From: Candidatus Harpocratesius repetitus
GTDB taxonomy: Archaea; Asgardarchaeota; Lokiarchaeia; Sigyniarchaeales; Promethearchaeaceae
Length of the DNA stretch: 32,000 bases
Assembly: GCA_021498095.1 (NCBI GenBank)
Contig: JAIZWK010000001.1
Location: forward strand, 1,740,001-1,772,000
Direction: 5' to 3'
Shown here: positions 12,758 to 16,115 of the stretch, one piece after another
Layout: each line of letters opens with the position of its first letter
How positions within the stretch are numbered: the stretch's first letter is position 1
Notes under the pieces: generated by a model
What the model was told of the DNA's origin: nothing
The model's input: only the letters and a program-made list of their open reading frames with translations
The model's database searches: none
Position numbers and translations under genes: made by a program

Positions 12758-13082
12758 GCATGATCTGTATCCGTTTTATAACCTTTGCGATCATTGTTAG
12801 GAAAAACCTAGTGCTCTCGCAACCTCTTCTCTAAAAACGGAAAATATGATTCATGCGGGCCAATATTTCTTGTTGCGGAGTAGGGTTGCTGACGATCTCA
12901 TCATTGCAAGCTCACGGCTGCCTCAGAGATGAGCCTAATTTCCGACTTAAAGAAATATTAACTCGGGGTTGTTGTCAGGATGCTTATGCTCGAAAATTTC
13001 ATTCGGAGACTTGATACAGTCAATTAACCGTCTATCTCGTCCTCGGTATCACATGACAAAAAAACGACCCGTCATTGTTCCC
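12758..13082 (-). ncRNA. Candidate multi-hairpin box H/ACA pseudouridylation guide RNA
   Basis: Non-coding and GC-richer than its flanks. Two hairpins (12944-12871 and 12841-12766) each have a lower stem, an internal pocket, an upper stem with tandem GA K-turn motif, and ACA (12873-12871; 12768-12766) 14-16 nt from the pocket top. TATA/BRE lie upstream. Confidence 0.7.
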
Positions 13083-13104
13083 TAAATTTATTAAAAGAAT
13101 AAAA

Positions 13105-15674: not shown

Positions 15675-16115
15675 TTAAGATTTTTGGAGATCTGATTTGT
15701 AAGATTTTGAATTAAAACTTTTAGGTTTGGGATTTTTATTTTTGAACGCTTTAGGATTTCCTTTTGGATTTGCAGTTAACCTTAATTTCGGATTTTTTGG
15801 ATTTGATTTAGAATGAAACTTTGCTTTTTTAATTTTAGTTCTCCGTGACTTTTGAGCAGAAGAGAGTGTGAATAAAGCAGATCCTTTTTTAATATTGTAT
15901 TTTTTAAAAATTTCTGCATCTGAATGAAATGGTTTGACCGAAACAAATGGTTTATTCACAGGACCAAAAATATCTGTGATGATACCTATTTTTTGCTTTT
16001 CTGAAGAATATACTTTTTCTCCAATATCAGGTAGCTTTTTATCAAAAGCTCCTTCAATACTTCGCAAAATGATATGATTTGAATGAGCAATGCCGATAAT
16101 TTTCCCAATGTTCAC
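15675..16115 (-). CDS. gar1: Gar1/Naf1 family H/ACA RNP protein with a Lys-rich tail
   Basis: IGEKVY...KIGIITDIFGPVNKPFVSVKP, directly upstream of tfb as in the usual archaeal gar1-tfb arrangement. Minus strand (GTG at 16115); the track's '+' is wrong. Confidence 0.9.
   Translation of the reverse strand: MNIGKIIGIAHSNHIILRSIEGAFDKKLPDIGEKVYSSEKQKIGIITDIFGPVNKPFVSVKPFHSDAEIFKKYNIKKGSALFTLSSAQKSRRTKIKKAKFHSKSNPKNPKLRLTANPKGNPKAFKNKNPKPKSFNSKSYKSDLQKS

Follow-up and report, generated by a model that had tools for sequence, protein, structure and literature searches.

The genome of Candidatus Harpocratesius repetitus consists of a single contig of 4.36 Mb with 31% G+C, and carries two 16S and two 23S rRNA genes. 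We analysed a window of 32,000 nt from this contig, in which the neighbouring genes include those for rpS26e, TFIIB and Gar1. A block of ~325 nt on the minus strand, located in the intergenic space upstream of a gene for a CDP-alcohol phosphatidyltransferase, is kept in eight same-family genomes and corresponds to a predicted RNA of three hairpins. The ends of this RNA are approximate, as they were set by the limits of conservation. Its main elements, in window coordinates, are as follows.

12758–13083, minus strand: whole three-hairpin RNA, putatively a box H/ACA RNA of the HgcG/Pab40 type, recognized as a conserved block with the layout of RF00064 motifs 1–3
12849–12856, minus strand: 5′ side of an extra basal helix seen in the host clade, pairing with 12764–12758, beyond the ACA box
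12871–12945, minus strand: hairpin A (motif 2), in which AACCC precedes ACA by 14 nt, an arrangement shared with Haloferax SL1 that points to U2586
12973–13060, minus strand: hairpin C (motif 1), predicted to target U2496 through GAGG and GCA(A) strands located 14 nt from ACA

The three H/ACA motifs are arranged in HgcG order, with the GAGG/GCA, AACCC and GUUA strands each positioned 14 nt before an ACA. By this layout we assign the RNA as the HgcG/Pab40 orthologue, but not as an Rfam member, as it lies below the gathering threshold. Neither the window nor the RNA by itself gave Rfam matches above chance, and RF00064 (HgcG) gave no match in the window or the host genome, even at an E value of 10. 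Because the same model also misses a Haloferax genome that carries sR-h45, this non-detection reflects the reach of the model, the Asgard RNA having diverged too far and being too rich in A and U for it to be recognized. Cbf5, Nop10, L7Ae and Gar1 are all encoded in the host genome. The gene for Gar1, a component of the H/ACA complex, is located at 15675–16115 of the window (minus strand), upstream of TFIIB and only 2.6 kb from the guide RNA. Identification of the RNA as RNase P RNA or SRP RNA was rejected, as there was no match to RF00373 or RF01857 and both genes are found elsewhere in the genome. [quoted passage not shown] Literature searches, the coverage of which was incomplete, turned up no publication on H/ACA RNAs of Asgard archaea or on maps of pseudouridine (Ψ) in Asgard rRNA.

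Of the 77 homologues in which the (A/U)ACCC pattern of hairpin A was found, 74 have this strand at 14 nt; the equivalent Haloferax SL1 is a guide for U2586. The 5′ strand, GGGCUC, fits U2586 or U2554, both imperfectly, and a CAGC that would pair with the A-loop is 18 nt away and not conserved. The hairpin points to U2586 rather than U2554 as its putative target. A target in the D-arm of tRNA-Leu was dismissed, as the sequence is absent from the host tRNA-Leu. For hairpin C, 85 of 112 homologues have the GAGG and GCA(A) strands at a distance of 14–15 nt from the box. The pocket of hairpin C fits U2496 of the host 23S rRNA, a predicted target in line with motif 1 of Pab40, which by offset we take to be yeast Ψ2865. 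A 16-nt stretch complementary to both pocket strands of hairpin A was observed at two host positions (G000:C1:2054786 and 2061785) in duplicated DNA 7 kb apart, probably by chance. It should also be noted that ARAGORN identified a tRNA-Sec(UCA) in the host (G000:C1:1668826-1668915), and that many host tRNAs seem to have introns at non-canonical positions.

We focused on hairpin B, the pocket of which had originally been predicted to guide pseudouridylation of U1921 (E. coli numbering) in helix 69 (H69) of 23S rRNA. The architecture of the hairpin is listed below.

12766–12841, minus strand: hairpin B (motif 3), predicted H69 guide, defined by covariation, Asgard-wide homologues and alignment with haloarchaeal SL2 and HgcG motif 3
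12832–12841, minus strand: lower stem, 5′ side, 9–11 nt in homologues
12825–12831, minus strand: 5′ guide strand GAGAAGA, of which GAGA pairs with U1921–C1924 (conserved register) and AAGA with U1923–U1926 (host-clade alternative)
12817–12824, minus strand: upper stem, 5′ side, two non-canonical layers plus 6 bp
12791–12816, minus strand: K-turn with an apical stem-loop (12810–12798); GA at 12816–12815, AAUGA at 12795–12791, and an invariant G–C pair in the C-stem
12783–12790, minus strand: upper stem, 3′ side, from the covariation alignment
12779–12782, minus strand: 3′ guide strand GUUA, pairing with U1911–C1914 (target U1915) or U1917–C1920 (target U1921)
12770–12778, minus strand: lower stem, 3′ side, from the covariation alignment
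12766–12768, minus strand: ACA box, replaced by AUA or UCA in certain close relatives

Hairpin B is a real structure: 88% of alignment cells were paired, compared with 33–52% in slid controls, and 10 of the 19 pairs had two-sided changes (9 homologues). Six base pairs, two non-canonical layers and two G–A pairs make up a 10-layer GA stem, which together with the 14-nt ruler marks productive archaeal guides (PMC4652768). The UGA, AG and G–C elements of the K-turn are invariant in the alignment, and the K-turn is a predicted L7Ae-binding site. Amongst homologues the 5′ side of the lower stem varies in length, whilst the 3′ distance stays at 14–15 nt. The first G of GUUA, a strand that is near-invariant across Asgard archaea, haloarchaea and HgcG, lies 14 nt before the ACA. 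An ANA or NCA box was found 14–17 nt from the top of the pocket in 52 of 55 homologues (14 nt in the host; UCA in two genera). The hairpin combines the characteristics of archaeal box H/ACA guides, namely a covarying stem–pocket–stem fold, a K-turn and an ANA box at 14–16 nt, with bipartite complementarity of at least 8 bp to an rRNA uridine.

These results agree with the original prediction that hairpin B is an H/ACA pocket aimed at H69. The pocket strands had been placed correctly, at 12833–12823 (UAGAGAAGAGG) and 12784–12777 (AGGUUAUA) of the minus strand with the ACA at 12768–12766, except that the two uppermost bases of either strand (GG/AG) are part of the upper stem, being Watson–Crick paired in homologues from genus g6. 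The host H69 is eukaryote-like, as the prediction required: both 23S copies have A1909 and U1921, so that the C1921 named beforehand as the case against the prediction is absent. A scan for targets of the pocket considered every U in the host 16S and 23S rRNAs, 36 tRNA genes, RNase P RNA and SRP RNA, under a strict geometry in which 'UN' is left unpaired. U1921 ranked first, the predicted 6+4 Watson–Crick pairs at 14 nt from the ACA being the best canonical fit amongst the host RNAs scanned. A tRNA target was rejected, the best tRNA match being wobble-rich and located within an intron. However, 19 of 300 shuffled pockets reached at least 10 pairs somewhere in rRNA, and the U1921 fit in this one genome alone is borderline above chance and weak evidence. 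All six 3′-arm pairs can be reached in the host, but two of them use bases that are paired inside the lower stem of the guide itself (A–U in the host, U–A in seven of nine homologues), and the other eight close homologues have GUUAA. The conserved fit to U1921 is consequently 4+4 rather than 6+4.

H69 contains UAAC-U twice, at 1911–1915 and 1917–1921, and because of this repeat GUUA can present either U1915 or U1921 at an equal distance from the ACA. In the U1921 register, AAGA forms the 5′ arm, which leaves the invariant GAG below it unpaired. For the U1915 register, pairing of GAGA with U1921–C1924 explains the GAG, U1921 is base-paired and U1915 occupies the pocket; the G after the bulged A can additionally pair with C1920. 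The U1915 register is missed by the strict 'UN' rule, because guides of this family can accommodate a longer segment, 'UNUN', in unpaired form (PMC7075261).

To which register the hairpin belongs was addressed with homologues. Covariance models recovered hairpin B at E<0.001 from 134 of the order's 151 genomes, in almost every case as a single copy, and gave matches in most other Asgard families sampled. Model R2 reached no genomes outside Lokiarchaeia; these came within reach of model R3, to which haloarchaeal and HgcG rows had been added and the seed of which included two junk partial rows. The GAGAAGA strand was present in only nine genomes of three genera, host included, and GAGAGA in 43 of 55 Lokiarchaeia copies. 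One genome carried two copies of hairpin B ~590 bp apart (G034:C17:42377-43051), a possible tandem duplication of the RNA.

A1909 was paired to U1921 in 58 of 58 Asgard genomes matched by the H69 pattern, plus 29 copies from family f31 (probably Thorarchaeia, a name we inferred); an extra CCCUC copy of H69 in genome G171 is probably contamination. The euryarchaeal and other archaeal loci fetched by the CCCUC pattern had G1909–C1921. The eukaryote-type A1909–U1921 pair is, on this showing, general in Asgard archaea, occurring in every Asgard 23S examined. Family f31 has C1910–G1920 in 28 of 29 H69 copies. In one genome (G310:C23:101408-102208, locus L394) some 800 bp seem to interrupt the 23S gene, either inside H69 or adjacent to it, and may represent an rRNA intron.

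Guide strands GAGGG, GAGAG and GAGAC track CCCUC, CUCUC and GUCUC, respectively, at rRNA positions 1920–1924. The first change, at the partner of 1921, distinguishes haloarchaea (GAGGG with CCCUC) from Asgard archaea (GAGAG with CUCUC); the second is seen in family f31, where the partner of 1920 is C in 20 of 20 guides (18 GAGAC, 2 GAGGC). These two compensatory guide–rRNA changes fix the U1915 register as the conserved one, and pairing of GUUA with H69 positions 1911–1914, as in motif 3 of HgcG/Pab40, is backed by this guide–target covariation. The U1915 register reached 8 bp in 117 of 117 homologues under lenient scoring that allowed more register freedom than the U1921 count, and the U1921 register did so in 91 of 117. 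The 26 failures of the latter include 20 of 20 from family f31, in which both arms are broken, 5 of 5 haloarchaea, and G005, a member of the host's own family in which GAGAGUU pairs with A1918–C1924 and cannot serve U1921. The homologues behind these counts are not independent, and represent two evolutionary events rather than 25, with each covariation a single event. In lineages with G1918, the 3′ strand stays GUUA or GUUG and is never GUCA. The U1921 register, then, lacks the family-wide conservation and covariation of an snR3-type guide.

Comparison with known systems leads in the same direction. Motif 3 of HgcG/Pab40 makes the 1915 equivalent in vitro (PMC2377435; PMC2584109), and SL2 of Haloferax volcanii sR-h45 guides Ψ1940 and Ψ1942, equivalent to E. 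coli 1915 and 1917 (PMC7075261), making Ψ1915 and then Ψ1917 in vivo with four target bases unpaired (PMC7075261). We located Haloferax sR-h45 by its published H box, and found SL2 in four more haloarchaea. The match between Haloferax SL2 (CAC-GAGGGU...GUUA-GUG) and most Asgard copies (CAC-GAGAGA...GUUA-GUG) is near letter-for-letter. Like SL2, hairpin B is the 3′-most hairpin, has a K-turn, pairs its 5′ strand with 1920–1924 and leaves an enlarged unpaired target loop. Unlike SL2, the Asgard hairpin has GAGAG for GAGGG, following U1921, and the U that pairs with A1919 is mostly replaced by A; in the host clade there is an additional A and the ruler is 14 nt instead of 16 nt, and the Asgard RNA has three hairpins whereas sR-h45 has two. 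Motif 3 of the Pab40, Pf7 and Afu-4 RNAs (RF00064) shares with hairpin B the three-motif context, the GUUA 14 nt before ACA, the H69-loop target and a similar apical K-turn element. The HgcG copies of Archaeoglobi and Thermococci likewise have GUUA 14 nt before ACA in the 3′-most of three motifs; however, the HgcG 5′ strand GGGUYA pairs with 1917–1922 in canonical UN geometry, unlike that of the Asgard RNA. In yeast, snR3 directs Ψ2264 and snR191 directs Ψ2258 and Ψ2260 (PMC2794176); Ψ2264 and human Ψ3747 correspond to U1921 (PMC2794176). The snR191 sites equate to the conserved target of hairpin B and the snR3 site to a possible side target, but these are two-hairpin snoRNAs without K-turns and with a separate pocket for each site. 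Hairpin B resembles snR3 in the helix addressed and, possibly, in the target site; no homology between the two was seen.

Hairpin B is best explained as the third motif in an Asgard RNA orthologous to Pab40/HgcG/Afu-4/sR-h45, and very probably guides Ψ1915, probably followed by Ψ1917 by analogy with Haloferax SL2. L7Ae would bind the K-turn, and Cbf5–Nop10–Gar1 the lower stem and ACA box. GUUA would pair with U1911–C1914 of pre-23S rRNA, placing U1915 14 nt from the ACA in the Cbf5 active site, whilst the 5′ strand would pair with C1920 or U1921 to C1924, leaving loop bases 1915–1919 unpaired. The A in GAGAG is presumably a compensatory change that followed the Asgard/eukaryote substitution of C1921 by U, which makes U1921 a pairing partner in the U1915 register. 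The analysis shows conservation of structure, homology, covariation and the presence of the protein genes; expression, RNP assembly and modification are inferred. U1921 is accordingly hard to maintain as the main target, given the homology to Ψ1915(/1917) guides and a covariation that makes 1920 and 1921 partners of the 5′ strand.

Could the pocket nevertheless have been retargeted in the host clade, to guide U1921 only? U1921 is the best strict-geometry match in the host, and UCA replaces ACA in two related genera. Relatives with UCA may be poor at the atypical reaction, which in Haloferax needs the ACA box (PMC7075261). A further point against the Ψ1915 reading is that, within the U1915 register, the inserted A of the host clade breaks the 5′ arm (four pairs plus a bulge, against five contiguous pairs) and leaves 5–6 target bases unpaired, above the four tested in Haloferax. 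However, the lower GAG, used only by the U1915 register, is retained in 9 of 9 genomes of the host clade, and family-wide covariation backs that register. A descriptor scan of the host for guides to U1911, 1915, 1917, 1921 and 1923 revealed no other convincing H69 guide and returned many weak chance matches, amongst which hairpin B ranked first by lower-stem strength for 1915 as well as for 1921; retention of the near-universal Ψ1915 function is favoured for this reason, and exclusive guidance of U1921 appears very unlikely. We consider it least probable of all that hairpin B makes no Ψ in H69 and acts as an H69 folding chaperone or on another RNA. On paper, GUUA and GAGA could form a near-continuous duplex with 1917–1924, but the 14–17 nt ruler, the K-turn and the ANA/NCA box are all kept, the orthologues are proven Ψ guides, and no better target was found amongst the host stable RNAs.

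A reading compatible with the Ψ1915 explanation, as an addition to it, is that in the host clade the hairpin shifts by six bases on H69 to make Ψ1921 in addition to Ψ1915(/1917). The extra A, present in 9 of 9 host-clade genomes, turns an arm of three Watson–Crick pairs and one G–U into four Watson–Crick pairs flush with the top of the pocket, in a canonical geometry (10-layer GA stem, 14 nt, UN unpaired). The resulting 8 bp, with at least three per side, is the minimum reported in eukaryotes (PMC7991803), the host can reach 6+4, and single archaeal motifs can guide several sites (PMC2377435). In addition, genome G101 (UUAAGA) and family f20 have independently lengthened the U1921 arm to 5–7 pairs. 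Against this, the repeat within H69 yields the fit as a matter of course, and the A–U-rich arm is weak (5′ arm −0.3 kcal/mol, against −2.3 kcal/mol for the conserved arm). It is also lost in f31 and G005, and no GUCA variant accompanies G1918. Furthermore, family f6 carries a different insertion (G) at the same place, and the spot therefore tolerates changes in length. We regard this second activity as possible but doubtful. Judged by their arms, the best candidates for genuine Ψ1921 activity may be L325:1501-1577 (minus strand) of G101, the 23S of which is not assembled, and L328, L331 and L357 of family f20 (UUUGAGA).

The RNA that contains hairpin B is, by homology, an Asgard representative, hitherto unannotated, of an established guide family, and hairpin B in Asgard archaea represents a clear case of guide–rRNA co-evolution. 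We speculate, tentatively, that the ancient pocket for Ψ1915/1917 acquired an additional register in the host clade (perhaps also in G101 and family f20) and there produces Ψ1921 too. If true, Ψ1921 would be a eukaryote-type rRNA modification in a lineage of Lokiarchaeia, a stem pseudouridine that the literature we found lists for yeast and human only, and would show how a new eukaryote-type site could arise when a long-established guide shifts along the repeat within H69.
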